Shown piece by piece: positions 1 through 15,721 of a stretch of 64,000 bases of DNA. Location of the stretch: contig CAVZZA010000001.1 of the NCBI GenBank assembly GCA_963779615.1, forward strand, positions 256,001 to 320,000, in the 5' to 3' direction. Made by a program: the position numbers and the translations under genes. This DNA comes from an uncultured Nitrososphaeraceae archaeon. GTDB taxonomy: Archaea > Thermoproteota > Nitrososphaeria > Nitrososphaerales > Nitrososphaeraceae. The notes beneath the pieces are model-generated. The model had not been told where the DNA came from and ran no database searches. It was given only the letters and a program-made list of their open reading frames with translations. Positions within the stretch are counted from its first letter, which is position 1. The number at the start of each line of letters is the position of its first letter.

Positions 1-1435
1 GAGTGAGATAGTGAATATCGCATCTTTGTAGTCTTTCCAAATCTTCGTTGTATTTATCTTGGAAATGCATCATTCCGAGGAATAATGACCTGACGTGCCA
101 TGAACCAACTGAATCGAAATTTTGTTTAAGCAAAATACTTGAAAACATCCTACCCAAATCTAAACCATGCGGCTGTTTGGATCTATCTACAAATTGGTTT
201 AATTTTCTTATCACCTCCAACATGGTCCAATATCTGTTAGATCCGGATTTTATTTCTTCAGTTTTTTCTTCAAAGTATTCTAACAATCCTTTGATGTCAA
301 CAAAAGAGGTAAGCGGTGTCAATTTTTTAGTCTGGGTGTCTTCAAATACATACGTTCCAGCGCCACATGCAAAATGGATGGACAATTCATATTTTGGTTT
401 TTTGCTAAATGCTTCTATAACATTAGTTAAAGGCATACATGAAGGAACAGGGAACCAGCCATCGCTTGATATCTCACCATTTGTTTGTTCTTCAATTCTT
501 TCAATGCAATCAGGAATAGTAATTCTGTACTTTTCTCGCTCTTTTTTGCTCATCCTACCAGTCAATGATACAGGTTGGAAGTTCACAGCATGAACAACAT
601 CCATGTTCTTTTGTGCAAAGCGTATGATTCCCCCTAATTCATGATCATTGATAGATTTAATAACTGTCGGGACAAAGACAACGGTCATTCCGCATTTTCT
701 TGCAGATTCTAGAGTGTATGGCACCTCCCAGTGATTTTTAGGATTTGTTCTTGGAGTCACTCCATCAAATGATAAATACAGGTTGCTTACTCCTGCCATC
801 CTAGTTTGTCTCATGGTTTCGGGGGAAAGGGCTAATTTTATGCCATTGGTATTAAGTTGAACATGATCTACACCTTCCTCTTTCATAATTTTAATCAGTG
901 CGGGCAAATCATCTCTTAGCATAGGCTCACCACCAGTGATTTGAATGGAATTACCAGCAATTGGTCTCTCTGCCTTTAGTGTTTTCATCATTGCGCGGAC
1001 TTGTTCATGAGAGGGCTCATACAAATAAGCTCCCTCCAAGCCTTTCTTCACATAAAAGAAACAGTACCAGCATGTGAGATCACATCGGTTAGTAACAATT
1101 ATGTTTGCCAATCCGGAGTGAGAAAGGTGATTAGTACATAAGCCACAATTAGTAGGACAAGCACATTTATCCACCATCACATTTGGAGCTTGTGCTCCTT
1201 TTCCATCCATCCAATAAGTGCTAAACTTTTTATACATTTCATAAGAACCAAAGTATAATTCTTCACACTCACCATGGCTAGGGCAGGTCTTTGTCATAAA
1301 GACCTTACCTTCTCTCTCAAACACCTCAGCATCCAGAATCATGTTACAATCTGGGCAAATACTTTGAGTATAGCGTATGGTACGTTTAGAACCAACAGTT
1401 TTACTAGTTAAATTAGAAATATGTATTAGATCCAT
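1..1435 (-). CDS. tes: Radical SAM tetraether (GDGT) lipid synthase, 3' end outside window
   Basis: Not in the ORF track (runs off the edge). Manual translation from ATG 1435: MDLIHIS...TQSICPDC...KTCPSHG...CPTNCGLC...VTNRCDLTCWYCF (CxxxCxxC)...ITGGEP...LSFDG...FQPVSLTGR...HFACG...GMMHFQDKYNEDLERLQRCDIHY, the MJ0619/Tes pattern. Confidence 0.88.
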   Translation of the reverse strand, partial: MDLIHISNLTSKTVGSKRTIRYTQSICPDCNMILDAEVFEREGKVFMTKTCPSHGECEELYFGSYEMYKKFSTYWMDGKGAQAPNVMVDKCACPTNCGLCTNHLSHSGLANIIVTNRCDLTCWYCFFYVKKGLEGAYLYEPSHEQVRAMMKTLKAERPIAGNSIQITGGEPMLRDDLPALIKIMKEEGVDHVQLNTNGIKLALSPETMRQTRMAGVSNLYLSFDGVTPRTNPKNHWEVPYTLESARKCGMTVVFVPTVIKSINDHELGGIIRFAQKNMDVVHAVNFQPVSLTGRMSKKEREKYRITIPDCIERIEEQTNGEISSDGWFPVPSCMPLTNVIEAFSKKPKYELSIHFACGAGTYVFEDTQTKKLTPLTSFVDIKGLLEYFEEKTEEIKSGSNRYWTMLEVIRKLNQFVDRSKQPHGLDLGRMFSSILLKQNFDSVGSWHVRSLFLGMMHFQDKYNEDLERLQRCDIHYLT

Positions 1436-1567
1436 AGTATTCGGTCTTTAGGTTTGTGGTTAATAGGCCTTATAAACTTGATCAGACAATTACTACGGTG
1501 TTTAGGTAGTAAGCAAAGAAAGAAGAGATAGATTTAATATATTTGAATAAATTACTCACATAAAGCA

Positions 1568-2350
1568 ATGGAAATTAGCGACAAGGCAAAAAAATCTATG
1601 GAAAGCCTTGGATTAACGAATTATGAGATCAGAGTGTATACAGCACTATTATTTTCCGGAGCTACTACCGCTGCCGAGATTAGCAAAAAATCCGGTGTCC
1701 CCTATTCAAAGATTTATGATGTATTGAATAATCTGTATGTAAGAGGGTGGACATATTCAGACAATTTAAGACCCCAGAATTTCTTTCCAAAGTCACCATC
1801 TACAGCAGTAGAGGCAGTGATGATAGAAATGGAAAACAGCATAAGAAGCAACAGGAATGTTATAATAAATGAATTAATGCCCATTTACGAAAAAACAGGG
1901 TTGAAAGAAAAACCAGATATATGGGTGGTGAGCGGACTTTACAATATCGCAGCTAAGGTAACAGAAATCATTCGATCTACTAAAGAGGAGCTTTTAATCG
2001 CAATTCCAAAAATCCCAGAAAATGTCATTAAATCCATTCAGCCCCTTCTGAGAGAACTTTTTGAAAAAGGGGTGAAAATTATTATTTTAGCATCAGAGGA
2101 AACTAGTGTGGAAATACTGAAAGCAATGTCAAGAGTTGCAGAAATAAGATTAAAAAACAGCATGTTCGGTGGAGGAGTAATAGGCGATTCAAAACAGGTG
2201 TTGATTTTACTCGGCGAAGGTAAAAATGATAATAATAGCAATTACGATATAATCGCGATATGGGCAGAGCACATAGGGTTAGCGAGTTTCGCAAAAGACT
2301 ATTTTAAGTACTTGTGGGAAGATGGAAAAAGGCTAAAAAGAGTAGATTAA
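1568..2350 (+). CDS. trmB: TrmB-family transcriptional regulator
   Basis: LGLTNYEIRVYTALL...EISKKSGVPYSKIYDVL N-terminal HTH plus C-terminal PLD-like domain. Confidence 0.9.
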   Translation: MEISDKAKKSMESLGLTNYEIRVYTALLFSGATTAAEISKKSGVPYSKIYDVLNNLYVRGWTYSDNLRPQNFFPKSPSTAVEAVMIEMENSIRSNRNVIINELMPIYEKTGLKEKPDIWVVSGLYNIAAKVTEIIRSTKEELLIAIPKIPENVIKSIQPLLRELFEKGVKIIILASEETSVEILKAMSRVAEIRLKNSMFGGGVIGDSKQVLILLGEGKNDNNSNYDIIAIWAEHIGLASFAKDYFKYLWEDGKRLKRVD

Positions 2351-4395: not shown

Positions 4396-5334
4396 TCAAA
4401 ATGGATTCTCATGAAGCAATGCAGATAAAAGAGCGGATCGCAACTCTTTGCCATAAGAAGCCTGTTTGAAGTATACAGCATTTTTAGTGTTATCGATAGA
4501 TGGGGATATTTCATCAACTCTTGGTAACGGATGTAAAATTGCAACATCAGGTTTAGACCTTTTTAATATATTTTCATCAATAGTATACAAGCCTTGAATT
4601 TTTTTATATTCTTGTAAATCAGGGAATCGCTCCTTCTGGATCCTAGTGACGTACATAACATCTAATTTTTTCAACAAATCATCAGTCAATTCAGTATGAT
4701 GAAACATCTTTATACTATTTGAAACATCATAAATTGATTCTTCCCTAATATTCAACATTGATGGAGAAACTAGGTGAATATGTACATTGTAATGAGATAA
4801 TGCGTATATTAAAGAATACACAGTTCGTCCGTATTTTAAATCACCAATGATTCCAATAGATAATCCATCAATCCTCTTTTTCTCTTTAAATATTGTGTAG
4901 ATATCCAACATAGCTTGTGTGGGGTGTTCTTCACTGCCACTGCCACCATTTATCACAGGTTTATCTGAAATCTCACTTGCGTACCTGCTAGAACCATCAG
5001 ATGGATGACGTATTAAAACAACATCAGAATACAAAGATATTGTTTTTATCGTATCAGCATAACTTTCACCTTTCATAATAGATGATGAGTCTATGTCTGC
5101 TATACCCAATGACCTGCCACCAATAGACGCCATAGCAGATTCAAAACTTAACCTCGTTCTTGTGCTGTATTCATAAAAAATGTATCCAAGTATTAGGCCT
5201 TTTGCAATCTCACCCCGCTCACTAGATGGCAAGGTTTGTATCTTGTCAGTAAGATCAAAAAGATACGTAAAATCATTGGTGGTAAAATCCCTAATAGAAA
5301 TAATACTTCGATTAAAAAACTTATTAACAGTCAT
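4396..5334 (-). CDS. pyrB: Aspartate carbamoyltransferase catalytic subunit
   Basis: FYEYSTRTRLSFE, HPTQ, GDLKYGRTV, TRIQKERF, HPLPR. Confidence 0.97.
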   Translation of the reverse strand: MTVNKFFNRSIISIRDFTTNDFTYLFDLTDKIQTLPSSERGEIAKGLILGYIFYEYSTRTRLSFESAMASIGGRSLGIADIDSSSIMKGESYADTIKTISLYSDVVLIRHPSDGSSRYASEISDKPVINGGSGSEEHPTQAMLDIYTIFKEKKRIDGLSIGIIGDLKYGRTVYSLIYALSHYNVHIHLVSPSMLNIREESIYDVSNSIKMFHHTELTDDLLKKLDVMYVTRIQKERFPDLQEYKKIQGLYTIDENILKRSKPDVAILHPLPRVDEISPSIDNTKNAVYFKQASYGKELRSALLSALLHENPF

Positions 5335-5392
5335 ATAACCAGATAATAAAAATATGCTAAAATTTATGCTTTTTTGAATTAATTAAAAAAAA

Positions 5393-8152
5393 TCATCCGG
5401 AAGCACAGCTACTAAATCCACATTCAATACACATGTTGCATCCCTCCGTAATTATGAGGAAATTTTTACATGTAGGACATATTTCCTTATTGCTTTCTGT
5501 TATAGAATGATCATATGGGTCAGAGGAAGTATTTCTGGAAAGTGGATCAAGCTCAAAACCAGATGCTTCTAAATCATTATTGAAGTTAGTGTTATCAATA
5601 TCAGTCACCGTATTATTACTGTCTAGATAGTTTTTAAAAATTGGAGTAACCTGGTCAATGACATATGGCTCTTTTATATTATTAAAGACATAATCGCATA
5701 AATATTTGCTAGGTTTGACTTGGAATTTTTTCTCACGCTCACTGCCAGTAATGTGTAAAACTTGCTCATTTCTTGAACCATCTCGATAAATAGTAACTCC
5801 TTTTAAGCCAAATTCATGAGCAAGCAGATAAGCGCATTTTACATCTTCAACCGTAACGTCTCCAGGCATATTTATTGTTTTTGCAATCGCATTACTAATC
5901 CATTTTTGCCATACTGCCTGAGCCATCAAATGTTCGGTCCAGTGAACATCAATAGCAGTAACAAAAATATTTTGAATCCACTCTGGAATTTCATCAATAC
6001 CTTGTGCAGAACCATAATTATTTGCAATTTTTAATAGGATTTCGTCATTGTATAGCCCATGTTCTTTTAGAACATTTTCAAAGATTTTACTGGTATAAAA
6101 GAATCTGCCTACTGTAACACGTTTTTCAAACACTAAAGCAAAAACTGGCTCTACACCATTTGATACATCTGCAATCATAGACAAGGTACCTGTAGGTGCA
6201 ATAGTAGTGGTCCAAGAGTTTCGAATACCATGACTTTTGATTTTCTCTATCAAAGAATCCCACTCAAAACAATGCAAATCTTTAGGGATTTCATAATATC
6301 CAGACAAAGGAATAACTCCATTTTTATAATCCGTCTCAGCAAATAATGGGAAAGAACCTCTAGATTTGGAAATTACTACGCTTTCGTCCATACTAAAGTA
6401 TGACAAAGTTTCTGCAAGTTTACTCATAAAATCATATCCTTCTTTGGAGTTATACGGAATTTGCAATAGGAAAAGCAGATCAGCAATACCCATTATGCCC
6501 AGTCCTATGCGTCTCGTTAATTTTGTATTAACATCAATTTCCTCAACTGGATACTTATTGACATCTATGATATTATCCAAAAATCTAGTGGCAACCCGTA
6601 TCGATTGTTCATACTTTTGCCAGTCAAACTCATACATTCCATCCGCCTTCCTTTTTACAAATTTTGAAAGATTGATAGATCCCAGGTTACATGATTCATA
6701 AGGATATAATGATTGTTCTCCACACGGATTTGTTGCTCGAAGAGGGCCACCTTTTGGCTTCATAACTGGATTGTATTTATTTATATTGTCAAAGAATATA
6801 ACACCAGGTTCGGCACTTTTCCATGCACTCAATGCAATCAGCTCCATCAATTGATGAGAATCAATGCTTTTTACATGTGCATTAGTTCGAGGGTTTCTTA
6901 AAGAATATTTATGATCACCTTTACTTACCAATGATTTCCAAAAATCAGCCCAAACTCCCACACTAACGTTAAAGTTTTCATATAAGCCGGGTTTTGTTTT
7001 CATTACAATAAATTTTTCAATGTCTGGATGCCAAGTTTCCAGGATACCCATGTTTGCGCCACGTCTTTTTCCACCTTGTTTAACTACGTCAGTCACTGAA
7101 TCAATAATTTGCATAAAGGATGCGGGTCCTGACGCAACACCACTAGTCGAAGCAACAATATCACCTTCAGGCCTTAGGTCAGAATAGTTGATTCCAACAC
7201 CACCACCTGATTTAAAAATCATTGCAGCATCGGTAGAAGATTTCATTATAGAGTACATGTCGTCAGGCATGTCAAGGACGAAACAGGCAGATAACTGCCC
7301 TAGCCTAGCACCAGAATTCATGAGGGTGGGAGTGTTTGGAAGGAATTCTCCTGAAACCATCAAATTATAATATTCAAATATCCTATTACCATAATTTGCC
7401 ATTTTCCCGCCAGCTATCATCCTCAGTAATTCTTTAAAGCTCGTTTTCATTTTACCAGTTTTTGCTTCTTCAATATAAGTTCTAATTAAAGATTCAAAAT
7501 GAAATTTATTAAGATAATAATTTCCAATTTTTAGTTTATTGTCAAAGTCGTTCAATTTTTCGTAATACTTTTCTGCATCTGTTAAAGTCTGTTTGTGATT
7601 ACCGTTTAAATCAAAAACAGCAGAATCATGAATTATATCAGGAATAGCAACCAAGATCGCGACACGTTCAAAAAGCTGTTTTGGACCTTCGTTAATTTCA
7701 TTATTGTTATTTCTAAGAAGATAGCGAGAAGACAAGACTCTGAGAGAATTGATGTCTAACGATTTGTCCACTTCATCAAGATCCTTTTTATTCAATATCT
7801 TCATCTTCATTTCCCTTATCTTTCGCCTCTCATGTCTGTATAATATGTAAGCTTTGGCAGTCTCGGCCAAACTCTCTTCTATTAGAATAGACTCGACCAT
7901 GTCCTGAACATCTTCAACGCTTAAAACGTGATCTTTGTTAGCAGATCCTAAATACCCGCTCTTATCAATCTTGTTAATTAATTTTGTTGCAAGCGATTCC
8001 GCTAACTTTCGGTCGGATTTGCCAGCCGCTACAAGTGCTTTATAGATTGCATTGGATATCTTTGATTGTTCGAAATTGACTATTGTTCCATTTCTTTTTT
8101 TAATATGTAATATAGATTTATTTTTTGAATTATGAAGATTAATTTCTGCCAT
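5393..8152 (-). CDS. nrdJ: Adenosylcobalamin-dependent (class II) ribonucleotide reductase with N-terminal ATP cone
   Basis: IKKRNG ATP cone; PNTPTLMN, LSACFV, GGKRRGANM, TNPCGEQ, ESCNLGS, TIAPTGT, YRDGSR, C-terminal CxxC...EGC..CxxCGFSSC. Confidence 0.95.
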   Translation of the reverse strand: MAEINLHNSKNKSILHIKKRNGTIVNFEQSKISNAIYKALVAAGKSDRKLAESLATKLINKIDKSGYLGSANKDHVLSVEDVQDMVESILIEESLAETAKAYILYRHERRKIREMKMKILNKKDLDEVDKSLDINSLRVLSSRYLLRNNNNEINEGPKQLFERVAILVAIPDIIHDSAVFDLNGNHKQTLTDAEKYYEKLNDFDNKLKIGNYYLNKFHFESLIRTYIEEAKTGKMKTSFKELLRMIAGGKMANYGNRIFEYYNLMVSGEFLPNTPTLMNSGARLGQLSACFVLDMPDDMYSIMKSSTDAAMIFKSGGGVGINYSDLRPEGDIVASTSGVASGPASFMQIIDSVTDVVKQGGKRRGANMGILETWHPDIEKFIVMKTKPGLYENFNVSVGVWADFWKSLVSKGDHKYSLRNPRTNAHVKSIDSHQLMELIALSAWKSAEPGVIFFDNINKYNPVMKPKGGPLRATNPCGEQSLYPYESCNLGSINLSKFVKRKADGMYEFDWQKYEQSIRVATRFLDNIIDVNKYPVEEIDVNTKLTRRIGLGIMGIADLLFLLQIPYNSKEGYDFMSKLAETLSYFSMDESVVISKSRGSFPLFAETDYKNGVIPLSGYYEIPKDLHCFEWDSLIEKIKSHGIRNSWTTTIAPTGTLSMIADVSNGVEPVFALVFEKRVTVGRFFYTSKIFENVLKEHGLYNDEILLKIANNYGSAQGIDEIPEWIQNIFVTAIDVHWTEHLMAQAVWQKWISNAIAKTINMPGDVTVEDVKCAYLLAHEFGLKGVTIYRDGSRNEQVLHITGSEREKKFQVKPSKYLCDYVFNNIKEPYVIDQVTPIFKNYLDSNNTVTDIDNTNFNNDLEASGFELDPLSRNTSSDPYDHSITESNKEICPTCKNFLIITEGCNMCIECGFSSCASG

Positions 8153-8327
8153 TCGGGTGACTATTTTAATGTATATGTATCATTATTTATTAAGATTAAT
8201 TGACTATGTTATTCGACAAAGTTAATAGAACTATTAGTATATACATTGATATAATATACGAGTATGTTCATTTTAATCAAATAAATTAATATGTACATAT
8301 ATTACTGACAATAATTCCATTACATAA

Positions 8328-10394
8328 TTAAGTCAAAGTTAACAGATTGTTAGATTTACATATGTAGCATACATTATTATTTGAAACCCGAGAGCCACAA
8401 ACATTACAAATAACCTGTTTATCGACTATTTCAAAACATGGAATTAATCCAGTAGATTTACCTAAAAATTCAACTGTGTTAGTCAAAGATATTGCGGTAG
8501 TGTCTATTTTGACGGAAAAACCACCCGTCAACAAATCATCCAACAATAGTAATTTTCGGGCCATAGAGTTTGCATCATCAAGATCCTTTTGGGTGATTAC
8601 CAGGCCTTGAGAATAGGAACCGAAAGTATGGAACAATTTGCCAAATCTTTCAGAATCCAGCTGGACAAACCGGCTGGAGCTATTATCATTGATTATCGAA
8701 ATTCCAAAACGATCATAACTTTTTTTATTAAAATTGGAAACAACATCATTAGCAGTTTTAATAACGTTCTTTATGATTTCAATGCCTTTCTCAGGGTCAT
8801 TAGAATAGCCCAGTATATCAAAAATCGATTCTTTTATGCCGGTTAAATTTATAATCATATCAGTAGAGCCTGATTGGGGAAACATAAGTGGATTGGATAA
8901 TGCAGGCAACAACCCTTTTCTAACATTATCAAAGATCATATCTTTTTTTGACACCAAGGCACCTAAGGAGGGTTTTAACAGTAAAGCCAATTTTGTTCTA
9001 AAATAAGTTTCATCCTTATTTGATTGATAAGCTAAATGCGGAAGGTTTAGAGAGATGGAGTGTAAAGAAACTACAGGTAATTTAGTGCCATCGTTTATTT
9101 TAAAAACTCCTTTACTACTTCGTATTGATTTTTGTGATAATGATATCTTTCCACCATATTTTGCAATTTTTGCTATCATATTAAGGAGATTGTTAGAAGG
9201 CGGATTTGAAAATACAATAAACAGTCCAAATTTTGGTATTGGAACTTTTTCCAGGTACGCCATATATCCATTTAATATTCCAGTTAAAACATTGTCTTTA
9301 TCCTTCAAAGAAATAGCAATTGTAACAAAAGGAGAACTAAGAGAATGGATAGAAAAAGAAGAATGCAGTAAGGAGTTTGCAAAAATTGAAGAAACGTCAT
9401 CAACATTTGATGATTCATCATCAAATAATATTTCAATATTTTCGATAACTATTTCTTTTGAAACTTCATTTTGAAAAAGAGAAACTAAAAGCGGTAAAAC
9501 AATACCAACATCATTTAAATGCGAAAAGTGGGGCAAATAAGGGAATTGCCCATTTAAATCCAGTCCTTTTTCCAGAAAATTTTCAGTATCAATAAAAATG
9601 GTATCGGGACAGATACCCCAATAGCCTAAATCATCTAGATGTATTTCACCATTAAAGTGCATATCCAATACATCTTTAGGAAAGTTATTTTTCAAATAAT
9701 CAGAAAAAACACTTTTGGAAATATCAATAATTACATTATTGATACCATTATTCAACAATCCAGTATTATTGTTTAGTTTTTTGTTTAAATCGTAAATAGG
9801 AATACCAAGTCTGATTAATTTGTTCATTTGTTCCTCTAAACCATGTTCTAATAGCACATTGTTAACATAGTCTCTAATAAGACTAGACGTCAAATAAGAA
9901 GATGGGGATTTATAGATTTTATTTTCCACTTCCTCTGTAACTTTTGTAGATTGCTCTAATGACATATTTGCCTCCCTTACCAAACACTGTATTATTTTAT
10001 GGGGGTTAAATTCTTCAATTGTTTGATTACTTGTCCTCACATACATCTTTCCACTTTCAATAATGGATTTTTCTTCTATTTGTCGAGCAAGATTTAAAAC
10101 CAATTTCCCCAAATTAGTAATAGCATACCGCCTTTCGGCCTTATTTAGGCCGACTAGAGATTGTCTTAACAGCTTTCGTAAATGATAAGCAAACTTTCCA
10201 GACTCTTTTTTGGATCTGAAGCCTGCTAAAGATTTTAATTCGGAATAAGTCAACGGTCCTTTAGAATTTAGGATACGCAAAATGTCAATTCTATTAGGGC
10301 TGGCCATCACAGAAAAAATCATTCTTACTCGTTTGGACGTTGATTCCAAAGCACCTCTTTTATTTTCCGATGCGGGCAAATACGTAATCCTCAA
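8328..10394 (-). CDS. ArsR-like wHTH + ATP-cone + NrdD-like (class III RNR fold, apparently inactive) fusion protein
   Basis: SPNRIDILRIL...FAYHLRKLL (wHTH); VRTSNQTIEEFNPHKI...LIRDYVNNVLLEHG (ATP cone); HFNGEIHLDDL, SLNLPHLA, terminal CNVCG...CYICKS with no glycyl-radical loop. Confidence 0.75.
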   Translation of the reverse strand: MRITYLPASENKRGALESTSKRVRMIFSVMASPNRIDILRILNSKGPLTYSELKSLAGFRSKKESGKFAYHLRKLLRQSLVGLNKAERRYAITNLGKLVLNLARQIEEKSIIESGKMYVRTSNQTIEEFNPHKIIQCLVREANMSLEQSTKVTEEVENKIYKSPSSYLTSSLIRDYVNNVLLEHGLEEQMNKLIRLGIPIYDLNKKLNNNTGLLNNGINNVIIDISKSVFSDYLKNNFPKDVLDMHFNGEIHLDDLGYWGICPDTIFIDTENFLEKGLDLNGQFPYLPHFSHLNDVGIVLPLLVSLFQNEVSKEIVIENIEILFDDESSNVDDVSSIFANSLLHSSFSIHSLSSPFVTIAISLKDKDNVLTGILNGYMAYLEKVPIPKFGLFIVFSNPPSNNLLNMIAKIAKYGGKISLSQKSIRSSKGVFKINDGTKLPVVSLHSISLNLPHLAYQSNKDETYFRTKLALLLKPSLGALVSKKDMIFDNVRKGLLPALSNPLMFPQSGSTDMIINLTGIKESIFDILGYSNDPEKGIEIIKNVIKTANDVVSNFNKKSYDRFGISIINDNSSSRFVQLDSERFGKLFHTFGSYSQGLVITQKDLDDANSMARKLLLLDDLLTGGFSVKIDTTAISLTNTVEFLGKSTGLIPCFEIVDKQVICNVCGSRVSNNNVCYICKSNNLLTLT

Positions 10395-10476
10395 CTATTA
10401 AAAGCAGTCCAGTTATTGAGGTATATAAATAAAACTAATAAGAAAAATATATGCAAAGATAGTAGAAAAATGTAGG

Positions 10477-11091
10477 TTAGTTTTCTAACAATACTTGACC
10501 ATTATTTAGTATATCATCTTTTAAATTAACATTGGATCTTTTAGAAATGATAGCTTGTGGGATCTCAGGTAGTTTTTCTTTTGCCTCATCCTCCAAATTA
10601 TTTTGCACATCATTCAGTATCAGTAATGCATCCTTATCAACTACAGAACCAATTTTTTCCCCATTCATGTTTATGTCAGAATTGATTAATACATCACTAG
10701 ACATAGAGTGAACTTGAGATAAGACATCAGTAGCGGATGGGACAACTTTTGAAAGATCTTTCTGGATATCCGTTAACATTTCTACGGTAGGATTAATTGT
10801 ATCCATCATCATTGAAAATTCAGTCATGGTTGAAAATCGTATTGCAACAACCTCCAAAGCTAAACTTGCATTTTGTGTGTTTTTTCTTAATCGCCTTATG
10901 GCAGACAACTCATTTGCCATGACATTTGCTAATGCATTATTTCCTAGTTTTATATTCTGAGCAATTTTTGAATTAAAACTGGCATCCATATTAGAGAATT
11001 TATTGTCTATGGACTTTAAATTAGAAATTTGCGCGTTTATTACTGAAACAGCATTATTAACGTCATAATAAAATTGACCGCTTTTTTCCAT
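10477..11091 (-). CDS. ESCRT-III/Snf7-like CdvB paralog
   Basis: Coiled-coil protein with ANVMANELSAIRR...LALEVVAIRFST...AKEKLPEIP, typical of thaumarchaeal CdvB paralogs. Confidence 0.7.
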   Translation of the reverse strand: MEKSGQFYYDVNNAVSVINAQISNLKSIDNKFSNMDASFNSKIAQNIKLGNNALANVMANELSAIRRLRKNTQNASLALEVVAIRFSTMTEFSMMMDTINPTVEMLTDIQKDLSKVVPSATDVLSQVHSMSSDVLINSDINMNGEKIGSVVDKDALLILNDVQNNLEDEAKEKLPEIPQAIISKRSNVNLKDDILNNGQVLLEN

Positions 11092-11188
11092 GTATGGTTG
11101 TATTATACAGACATTTGTTAAAAACGAATGTCAAACTCTATAAACAAAAAAGAAAAGTATTTTTAACTACTATCAGGCAGGCTAGATT

Positions 11189-11581
11189 TCAGGATTTTTC
11201 CAGTATCAAGCCATGCTTATCATGGAAATCAATTACTTTGACCTGAGTACCAAGAGGCAGATCAGATGGCGACGAAATTCCAGCTAGAAAACCTGAAACA
11301 TTAAGTTCACACTCATCTAGTTTAAAAACAACCCATGCATAGGAGCTAACATCTTCAAACCCTTCAGGAACTATAGATTGTATTGTATAGGTAATCACTT
11401 TGCCTGTGCCATTATAGGGTACTTGTTTAAATGAATTGGAAAAACATTTGTCACAATAATATACGGTCTCTAACAGAAGATTATTGCATTTTATACACTG
11501 ATTAACCAATATCTTACCAGTTTTGGCAGATTCTATAAAGCGTTCCCTTGAGCCTTGTTTTTTTGATTTAACATTAGTCAA
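11189..11581 (-). CDS. DUF35 Zn-ribbon/OB-fold protein (thiolase partner)
   Basis: CIKC...CDKC then GKVITYTI; directly downstream of thiolase. Confidence 0.88.
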   Translation of the reverse strand: MTNVKSKKQGSRERFIESAKTGKILVNQCIKCNNLLLETVYYCDKCFSNSFKQVPYNGTGKVITYTIQSIVPEGFEDVSSYAWVVFKLDECELNVSGFLAGISSPSDLPLGTQVKVIDFHDKHGLILEKS

Positions 11582-15142: not shown

Positions 15143-15721
15143 TCAGAGTATTAGAATGGCAGCACTTATCACAGTTGTCCATAATCCATCTTTGTGACCT
15201 TCTGCTGATTGAGTAATATTTTGAGTTTTGTAAATCTTTCCTGATAGCATCCATTGTTCTTCTCTTTGATCCCATGTAAGTATTGGGTCATTAGGTAATC
15301 CTAGTGTTGTAGCAAGCATTTCCATAGCCATATCTTCAGCGTAGTCTCCAGCTTTTTGTGCTGTTTCTCCGGTAGAATGGTGTTCTGACAGATAGCCATG
15401 TAATGTATCATCAACGGGTCTTGCTAGACCAATAGATGTAGCAATTAGTCGGTTTGGCTCATTAGTAGCAGAACGAGCCATAACTGCAAAAACGATCTGT
15501 CCTGGCATTAAGTATTTTCTGCCTTCTTGTCTTGATACTGTTTTGCATAGTGGAGGTTTGATGCTAGATACAGATACTAGATTTAGATCAGCTATTTCTG
15601 CATCACGTAAAGCTAATTCAAAGCTTGTAAGTGAATCTTTGTGTACACCTTTACCTTTTGTTAAAAACATTATTTTTGGGACATATAACGAAGGATCTGA
15701 GGCTGCTGTTGGTGATTTCAT
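15143..15721 (-). CDS. pdaD: Pyruvoyl-dependent arginine decarboxylase
   Basis: SFELALRDAEI..LNLVSVSSI (Ser-Ser autocleavage site), GYLSEHH, WTTVISAA. Confidence 0.9.
   Translation of the reverse strand: MKSPTAASDPSLYVPKIMFLTKGKGVHKDSLTSFELALRDAEIADLNLVSVSSIKPPLCKTVSRQEGRKYLMPGQIVFAVMARSATNEPNRLIATSIGLARPVDDTLHGYLSEHHSTGETAQKAGDYAEDMAMEMLATTLGLPNDPILTWDQREEQWMLSGKIYKTQNITQSAEGHKDGLWTTVISAAILIL

Follow-up and report, generated by a model that had tools for sequence, protein, structure and literature searches.

Domain organization of the gene

The analysis of a 64,000-nucleotide (nt) stretch of DNA from an uncultured, ammonia-oxidising Nitrososphaeraceae archaeon (contig CAVZZA010000001.1, positions 256,001 to 320,000; this whole stretch is the window to which all coordinates refer) reveals a gene of composite make-up directly upstream of nrdJ, which encodes a B12-dependent class II ribonucleotide reductase (RNR). 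The gene, here called REG, joins a winged helix-turn-helix (wHTH) head to an ATP-cone and to a body that resembles the anaerobic class III RNR, NrdD. Its parts are as follows.

8328..10394, (-) strand: the whole gene (REG), with wHTH, ATP-cone, dead NrdD barrel and Zn ribbon; 688 residues, TTG start
10080..10322, (-) strand: wHTH, residues 25-105, of ArsR/SmtB topology (HTH_20, DUF7347, domain model, Foldseek)
9798..10046, (-) strand: ATP-cone, residues 117-199, diverged, with VRTS against the canonical VRKR (Pfam, genome search)
8430..9797, (-) strand: NrdD-like 10-stranded barrel without catalytic residues, residues 200-655 (Pfam, alignments, model)
8331..8429, (-) strand: C-terminal Zn ribbon with C663, C666, C676 and C679 (translation, alignment)
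10395..10476, (-) strand: REG promoter region, with TTTATATA at 10422-10429 (read from the sequence)

A preliminary description of this DNA had proposed the order wHTH, ATP-cone and NrdD-like body, and this order is upheld by Pfam, where all parts score over their cut-offs: DUF7347 at residues 26-100 (40.3 bits against 27.6), HTH_20 at residues 30-81 (31.4 bits against 27), the ATP-cone at residues 117-190 (44.8 bits against 25.8, and 48.5 bits in the genome search) and NRDD in two stretches, the best of which covers residues 410-683 (66.3 bits against 26.2). The sequence landmarks named in that description are likewise found in the translation, which contains MHFNGEIHLDDLG, SLNLPHLAY and CNVCGSRVSNNNVCYIC together with the terminal CxxC..CxxC Zn site, and which ends exactly nine residues after the last Cys of CNVCGSRVSNNNVCYIC. 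The recognition helix of the head carries the nearly invariant GKFAYHLRKL, and the barrel retains D244, H246 and G249 as well as N450 of the NLP motif.

In most database relatives the start is placed at the ATG of REG residue 25 (10322), giving proteins of 654-664 residues, and residues 1-24 of REG are poorly conserved (majority-residue fraction 0.25 in the protein alignment). Between the TTG (10394) and this first ATG, Nitrosocosmicus relatives differ mostly at synonymous positions, for example by AGA to CGC and a number of third-base changes, which makes translation of the 24-residue N-terminal tail probable. The TTTATATA element ends 27 nt 5' of the TTG, in a block kept across Nitrosocosmicus, which suggests that the REG mRNA is leaderless or nearly leaderless.

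Loss of glycyl-radical chemistry

The chemistry of the Prevotella copri NrdD (PcNrdD) needs Gly711 as the radical residue, Cys416 at the tip of the finger loop and Cys171 on the first barrel strand, according to the relevant passages of PMC11226230. The corresponding columns were fixed by aligning a genuine archaeal NrdD to the 8p23 chain (paper numbering + 4), and a MAFFT alignment was made of 8 genuine NrdDs and 101 full-length family representatives (at least 560 residues, taken from the 150 best of 933 rows). Genuine NrdDs from other Thermoproteota score 640-680 bits to PF13597 and carry the motifs PYC, SMCC and RVVGY. Among the 101 family members, the thiyl-radical Cys column holds no Cys at all (some Cys lies within 3 columns in 13), the beta-1 Cys column is equally devoid of Cys (one lies within 2 columns in 2), and at the radical Gly column 52 show a gap, 12 a Gly and 37 some other residue. 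Most of these members retain the Asn of the NLP motif (98) and the Zn-ribbon cysteines (about 75).

The losses assigned to REG in the preliminary description, namely those of the glycyl-radical loop and of the finger-loop Cys, are borne out at the level of individual residues: T265 occupies the beta-1 Cys column, residues 405-450, which align to the finger loop, are without any Cys, and the protein stops before the radical Gly column, so that the loop (RxxGY) is missing. The same catalytic losses emerged when a profile of 28 short-form members (those that, like REG, end after the Zn ribbon) was compared with the T4 and T. maritima NrdD chains, with Ser or Ile standing opposite the Cys of MGCRS in T4 NrdD.

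These observations are accompanied by searches of the genome (3.17 Mb, 5 contigs, 92.5% complete). REG reaches 48.2 bits against the NCBIfam NrdD equivalog TIGR02487, whose cut-off is 326.35, and it is the single NRDD match in the genome; two ATP-cones are present, in REG and in nrdJ, and the one class I/II RNR barrel is nrdJ, which is the only working RNR found in the genome. The NrdG activase, reported earlier to be missing from the vicinity, was not found genome-wide, the best profile scores being 38.7 bits against 126.1 (TIGR02491) and 42.3 bits against 131.15 (TIGR02495). The repressor NrdR was not found either, with no TIGR00244 match at E <= 1 in a six-frame search of the genome. Because the residues required by PcNrdD chemistry are missing, the TIGR02487 score is low and NrdG was not found in the genome, REG, as judged from its sequence, cannot perform glycyl-radical chemistry and is an NrdD-derived protein but no enzyme.

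The only radical S-adenosylmethionine (SAM) gene near REG, at 2..1435 of the window on the (-) strand (full open reading frame at 400..2103 in locus L011), encodes the tetraether lipid synthase Tes, a protein of 567 residues (NF045702, 696.8 bits against 450). As a candidate RNR activase it was ruled out, since the NF045702 match identifies it as the lipid synthase.

Public sources name the relatives of REG 'ribonucleoside-triphosphate reductase (formate)', 'anaerobic ribonucleoside-triphosphate reductase', 'helix-turn-helix domain-containing protein' or 'ArsR family regulator', the enzyme names being given by JGI and NCBI. A working anaerobic (class III) RNR, as the databases have it, could invoke these names, the Pfam NRDD match over its gathering score and the NrdD fold, but it is highly improbable given that the thiyl-radical Cys, the beta-1 Cys and the glycyl-radical loop are all missing, that TIGR02487 is missed by far and that the genome lacks NrdG. 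Moreover, the named relatives belong to ammonia oxidisers, which are aerobes. The suspicion of a misannotation as anaerobic RNR is supported.

Predicted fold of the body and the head

The preliminary description had proposed a predicted structure compared with NrdD as a check, and an AlphaFold2 model of REG built from a 111-row alignment (predicted local distance difference test, pLDDT, 90.1; predicted template modelling score, pTM, 0.84) returned the class III RNR fold as its top matches in the PDB. In a Foldseek search with the full model, ranks 1-36 are all class III RNRs (E 1e-18 to 1e-11, template modelling (TM) score up to 0.64, identity 11-18%), and class I RNRs and other glycyl-radical enzymes follow below rank 36. 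REG is accordingly modelled with the 10-stranded alpha/beta barrel of the RNR/glycyl-radical-enzyme type.

The head (residues 18-116) was modelled with a pLDDT of 95.6 and displays the order a1-a2-a3-aR-b1-b2-a5 of ArsR/SmtB repressors, in which a5 is the dimerising helix. Superposition gives TM scores of 0.6-0.78 with CadC, CzrA, SmtB, Rv0081 and AspA, an archaeal centromere binder; the Foldseek E-values of the head range from 1.5e-3 to 1e-2, with no row at E <= 0.001, and the assignment of the wHTH fold relies on the TM scores and the Pfam match. A complex prediction with two copies of residues 18-200 gave a score of 0.26 against a mark of 0.42, which is evidence neither way.

Family, decay and conservation

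The family to which REG belongs is large, comprising at least 3914 relatives in a word-indexed search (in which the 8000 candidates sharing most words were scored), 933 cluster representatives at E <= 1e-3 in an exhaustive search and 595 confirmed loci in species-representative genomes, found via one recognition-helix peptide pattern. Its members show grades of decay. Long forms (about 740-800 residues, one of them from a Bathyarchaeota metagenome-assembled genome, MAG) give a full-length NRDD match at 140-307 bits and still carry a vestigial tail beyond the Zn ribbon, where A, T, K, N or I usually takes the place of the radical Gly. Short forms of the REG type end after the Zn ribbon, and some forms, one of them from an Aigarchaeota MAG, are also without the ribbon. 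In a FastTree of 56 rows, all 45 family rows fall in one clade (Shimodaira-Hasegawa-like support 100), sister to the NrdD type that adjoins the long forms, with long forms basal and short forms nested; the order of events in this quick tree, whose root was chosen on one NrdD type, is tentative. On this tree the family has a single origin.

The distribution of conservation within the protein is uneven. Across 28 short-form members the majority-residue fraction is 0.72 for the wHTH and 0.68 for the cone but 0.40 for both the barrel and the Zn ribbon, with the invariant columns concentrated in the recognition helix, wing and cone. By this measure selection sits on the head and not on the barrel, which is the reverse of an enzyme's pattern. 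A separate observation on the winged helix comes from a Nitrosopumilaceae genome, in which a second fragment (G011:C1:1091136-1091393) with 3 stop codons shares 86% identity with residues 16-101 and sits some 6 kb away from the intact REG homologue.

Linkage with ribonucleotide reductase genes

The neighbours of REG in the window are given below; an OB-fold gene and a thiolase gene lie further upstream.

5393..8152, (-) strand: nrdJ, B12-dependent class II RNR with its own canonical ATP-cone (TIGR02504, 730 bits against 399.95)
8153..8327, (-) strand: gap from REG to nrdJ, presumed promoter of nrdJ and a candidate target; 175 nt, AT-rich
4396..5334, (-) strand: pyrB-like aspartate carbamoyltransferase
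10477..11091, (-) strand: Snf7/CdvB-like gene, directly upstream of REG (Pfam Snf7 27.1 bits, just under the 27.3 cut-off)

The earlier placement of REG 175 bp upstream of, and co-oriented with, the class II RNR is confirmed by these coordinates, and comparison with other genomes shows that the linkage is conserved, as had been asked of it, beyond the genus and across RNR classes. In a Nitrososphaerales sample of 61 genomes from 14 families, a REG homologue was found in 59 and an NrdJ-like gene in 60. An RNR gene lies downstream of the homologue, within 4 kb and on the same strand, in 51 of the 59, and the linkage persists where the RNR of a family shares only 33-36% identity with this nrdJ; in 4 genomes the two genes are on different contigs. 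Within the Nitrososphaeraceae, nrdJ is directly downstream on the same strand in 64 of 80 loci, while 9 of the 80 end within 600 nt of the gene and are too short to tell.

Outside the Nitrososphaerales, long forms stand directly upstream of a genuine nrdD in at least 12 genomes of 5 families, and among the matches listed a long form lies apart from nrdD in about 30 genomes of other families. Twenty regions were fetched from outside the order, a non-random set of 3 known adjacent cases and 17 picked for no visible adjacency. All 3 of the nrdD neighbours so obtained carry every catalytic motif and resemble the long forms more closely than they do the other NrdD type, and in 2 of the 20 regions, from genomes without a true NrdD, an nrdJ-like gene lies downstream of the long form.

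A side observation in the window is a gene for a pyruvoyl-dependent arginine decarboxylase (15143..15721, (-) strand; PF01862, 195.5 bits), which appears ordinary.

A putative regulator of deoxyribonucleotide supply

The points that we count for a regulator are that REG cannot be an enzyme and has the NrdD fold, that the genome holds no NrdR, that the head and cone are conserved, that the gene is linked to RNR genes, that the head is of the ArsR/SmtB type, that the family falls in one clade and that RNA-library contigs cover parts of REG in 3 of the 4 studies. We consider it probable, by a modest degree, that REG is an RNR-derived pseudoenzyme acting as a DNA-binding transcription regulator of the supply of deoxyribonucleoside triphosphates (dNTPs). 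According to this proposal, an ancestral class III RNR gene would have been duplicated, probably beside its parent, and the NrdD copy would have been joined to an ArsR-type winged helix at its N-terminus and deprived of its radical chemistry; in the lineage towards the ammonia oxidisers it would later also have shed the entire glycyl-radical tail. The nrdJ promoter would be bound by the ArsR-type head, which a5 and a dimer of the NrdD-like body probably make dimeric. The targets would be nrdJ and possibly REG itself and pyrB. The ATP-cone, perhaps with the relic barrel, would form a ligand-sensing or oligomerising module that switches DNA binding, with a nucleotide setting the affinity or the oligomer state via the cone, in the manner of bacterial NrdR. 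We infer that REG binds DNA, and likewise its targets, its ligand and the choice between repression and activation.

NrdR is described as rare in archaea in the available text of PMC9110341, and REG is proposed as its functional analogue, not as a relative. A wider version of the proposal is tentative, with a probability that we place slightly short of even: TACK archaea would control dNTP supply by a regulator made from a dead tandem nrdD copy and a winged helix, kept when ammonia oxidisers swapped their anaerobic enzyme for the B12-dependent nrdJ, and sensing would proceed via a re-tooled ATP-cone.

Evidence weighed against the proposal

Observations on the cone, on the upstream regions and on the gene order all weigh against a nucleotide-responsive regulator of nrdJ. 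In canonical cones, a Lys-Arg pair (Lys7 and Arg8 in PcNrdD) holds the triphosphates, again according to the relevant passages of PMC11226230. In the REG cone, Thr121-Ser122 replace this pair, and the replacement is widespread in the family: at the Lys column, 74 of the 101 members have T, 16 have R, 6 have S and 2 have K, and at the Arg column 91 have S, 8 have T and none has R. In addition, the relic effector hairpin of the barrel is lost in REG's genus, as mapped on 8p23. Because the Lys-Arg pair is replaced, it is not safe to assume that the REG cone binds ATP or dATP. For the ATP/dATP sensing put forward in the preliminary description, the Pfam ATP-cone match lies over its cut-off, but sensing itself is less safe than was assumed. 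The basic residues of the last cone helix are kept (e.g., R195), and strong conservation speaks for a cone that still has some specific function.

Simple k-mer, dyad and footprint scans found no operator motif common to the nrdJ upstream regions across clades, and none common to the nrdJ and own-gene upstream regions, where only T-tracts and TATA-like words recur. Nor did these scans find a shared box of the kind that NrdR has ahead of RNR genes in palindromic pairs. The gap at 8153-8327 contains the short palindromes ATATGTACATAT and GTATATAC, which relatives do not share. Some clades do show conserved blocks of their own upstream of nrdJ, in which operator and promoter are indistinguishable.

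Several individual candidates were tried and rejected in the course of these scans. Neither the inverted and direct repeats in 8140-8340 nor the scans for TACA/TGTA spacing resulted in a motif common across clades. In 66 non-redundant nrdJ upstream regions, k-mer enrichment against shuffles gave top words that reflect relatedness and start-codon context, and the GTRYACT word of some Nitrososphaera occurs in only 17 of the 66. The 8-mers common to own-gene and nrdJ upstream regions are AT-rich promoter words only, plus TAAACGAT in two loci, and the words recurring across 15 clades are T-tracts only. A sigma-70 and terminator scan was set aside as meaningless for an archaeon.

Two arrangements upstream of nrdJ were seen in single groups. 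In three Nitrososphaera loci (L095, L092 and L072), a GTGCACTT-like direct repeat, with copies 22 nt apart, lies about 55-80 nt upstream of nrdJ, and between the copies stands the perfect palindrome CTGATTAATCAG; this combination of GTGCACTT and CTGATTAATCAG is kept only in that Nitrososphaera clade and is a candidate clade-specific operator. In two Nitrosocosmicus relatives (L049 and L052), a short nrdJ promoter segment, consisting of a TATA-like word and about 40 nt, is tandemly duplicated.

Soil metatranscriptome contigs from 4 studies were placed on 5300-11200; such contigs show presence only, neither starts nor expression levels, and DNA carry-over is possible. Contigs covering nrdJ end at 8117-8150, just inside the start codon at 8152, in 4 of 4 runs, and no RNA contig of the 4 runs bridges the gap at 8153-8327, a weak hint in that uncovered stretches prove nothing. 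Parts of REG are covered by RNA-library contigs in 3 of the 4 studies, and one contig spans the REG 5' end and the Snf7 gene.

The lack of an operator in the upstream scans favours a role at the protein level, in which REG, as a pseudoenzyme that binds nucleotides or NrdJ, would serve as allosteric partner, buffer or chromosome tether and its wHTH would make unspecific contact with DNA or contact with protein. Such a role also fits a barrel that is still constrained, with N450 kept almost throughout and D244, H246 and G249 nearly invariant, and short gaps (53 nt in some relatives) would permit co-expression with nrdJ. We nevertheless regard it as unlikely, since conservation peaks in the recognition helix and wing, as is typical for sequence-specific binders, whereas the barrel is the least conserved part, and, as a weak further point, the two genes are bridged by RNA contigs in none of the 4 runs.

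The gene order also includes exceptions that count against regulation of the adjacent RNR gene. The REG homologue and the RNR gene are convergent in 3 Nitrososphaerales genomes (one genus) and divergent in 1; among the 71 informative Nitrososphaeraceae loci, 7 lack an RNR gene in the 1.5-6 kb downstream; and 15 of the 20 regions fetched outside the order, 17 of which were preselected for no adjacency, have none within 5 kb. In the 5 of these 15 regions that were scanned with Pfam (L158, L159, L161, L169 and L172), the adjacent gene is pyrB or pyrI in every case, and beside the long forms of L158-L172, from other Thermoproteota, these genes are mostly convergent. The gene thus accompanies whichever RNR the genome uses, or pyrimidine synthesis. 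Furthermore, REG sits in an old and wider conserved block (thiolase, OB-fold, Snf7, REG, RNR and pyrB), so some of the RNR linkage may be inherited gene order and not function; the OB-fold and thiolase genes of the window recur upstream in L162.

This gene order could be taken to mean that REG is a transcription factor with another regulon, either pyrB/pyrI or the Snf7/CdvB-type division gene, and that the adjacency of nrdJ is inherited. The pyrB or pyrI neighbour in all five tested loci without an adjacent RNR, the Snf7-like gene directly upstream in 78 of 80 Nitrososphaeraceae loci (tblastn) and the recurrence of the whole block, including the thiolase and OB-fold genes, in distant lineages speak for this possibility. 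It is doubtful, however, because RNRs of two classes (nrdD and nrdJ) with very different sequences occupy the same place directly downstream in many separate lineages, for which inheritance alone is insufficient, and the pyrB gene is mostly convergent and not co-oriented. The Snf7-like neighbour is, in its own right, a possible link between cell division and dNTP supply.

As regards a regulator of dNTP supply, the enzyme-derived, nucleotide-sensing transcription factor of the preliminary description is therefore retained in part: descent from NrdD, loss of activity, the ArsR/SmtB head and the RNR linkage stand, whereas no shared operator was found and the cone lacks the canonical Lys-Arg pair.

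Relation to known systems and significance

REG shares with NrdR (TIGR00244) a proposed role, the nucleotide-responsive control of RNR transcription, as set out for NrdR in the available text of PMC9110341. The two differ in their parts: NrdR is a protein of about 150 residues with a Zn ribbon, no RNR barrel and the Lys-Arg pair kept, whereas REG has a wHTH head. With no TIGR00244 match in REG's genome, the resemblance would be one of analogy and not of membership. With NrdD (PF13597, TIGR02487; 8p23, 4coi, 1h78 and 9d3x), REG shares the barrel fold, the cone before the barrel, the NLP motif, the Zn ribbon and common descent, but it lacks the thiyl-radical Cys, the beta-1 Cys and the glycyl-radical domain and has an extra N-terminal wHTH. 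The likeness to ArsR/SmtB proteins (CadC 1u2w, CzrA 1r1u, SmtB 1r23 and Rv0081 6jmi) lies in the five-helix, two-strand topology and a recognition helix of the HL..L...LV type, at TM scores of 0.6-0.78 over about 90 residues with E-values of 1.5e-3 or weaker; in REG this domain is only the head of a 688-residue protein. WhiA, which the available text on it relates to homing endonucleases, similarly uses a catalytic scaffold as the body of a DNA-binding regulator, but it has another parent enzyme and another fold.

No RNR-derived transcription factor turned up in the literature searched, and no description of a fusion of wHTH, cone and NrdD was found there, the coverage being of few subscription journals and without supplements; term look-ups in PMC3019208, bioRxiv 10.1101/2022.04.23.489257 and PMC6593220 gave nothing on the fusion. 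What would be new is therefore an NrdR-like logic assembled from different parts in an enzyme-derived regulator, which is neither a member of NrdR nor a functional NrdD.

The regulation of archaeal RNR genes is largely unknown, and the REG family offers a directly testable candidate regulator. A third type of ATP-cone protein, which almost all sampled ammonia oxidisers and many other Thermoproteota possess, would change that picture, and if the wider version of the proposal is true, REG would be the archaeal counterpart of NrdR that has been missing and would give the ATP-cone a third home. The proposal would also correct a widespread misannotation that implies anaerobic dNTP synthesis in ammonia oxidisers, and it would document the steps from enzyme to regulator, from long forms with a vestigial Gly loop to short forms and on to forms without the Zn ribbon.

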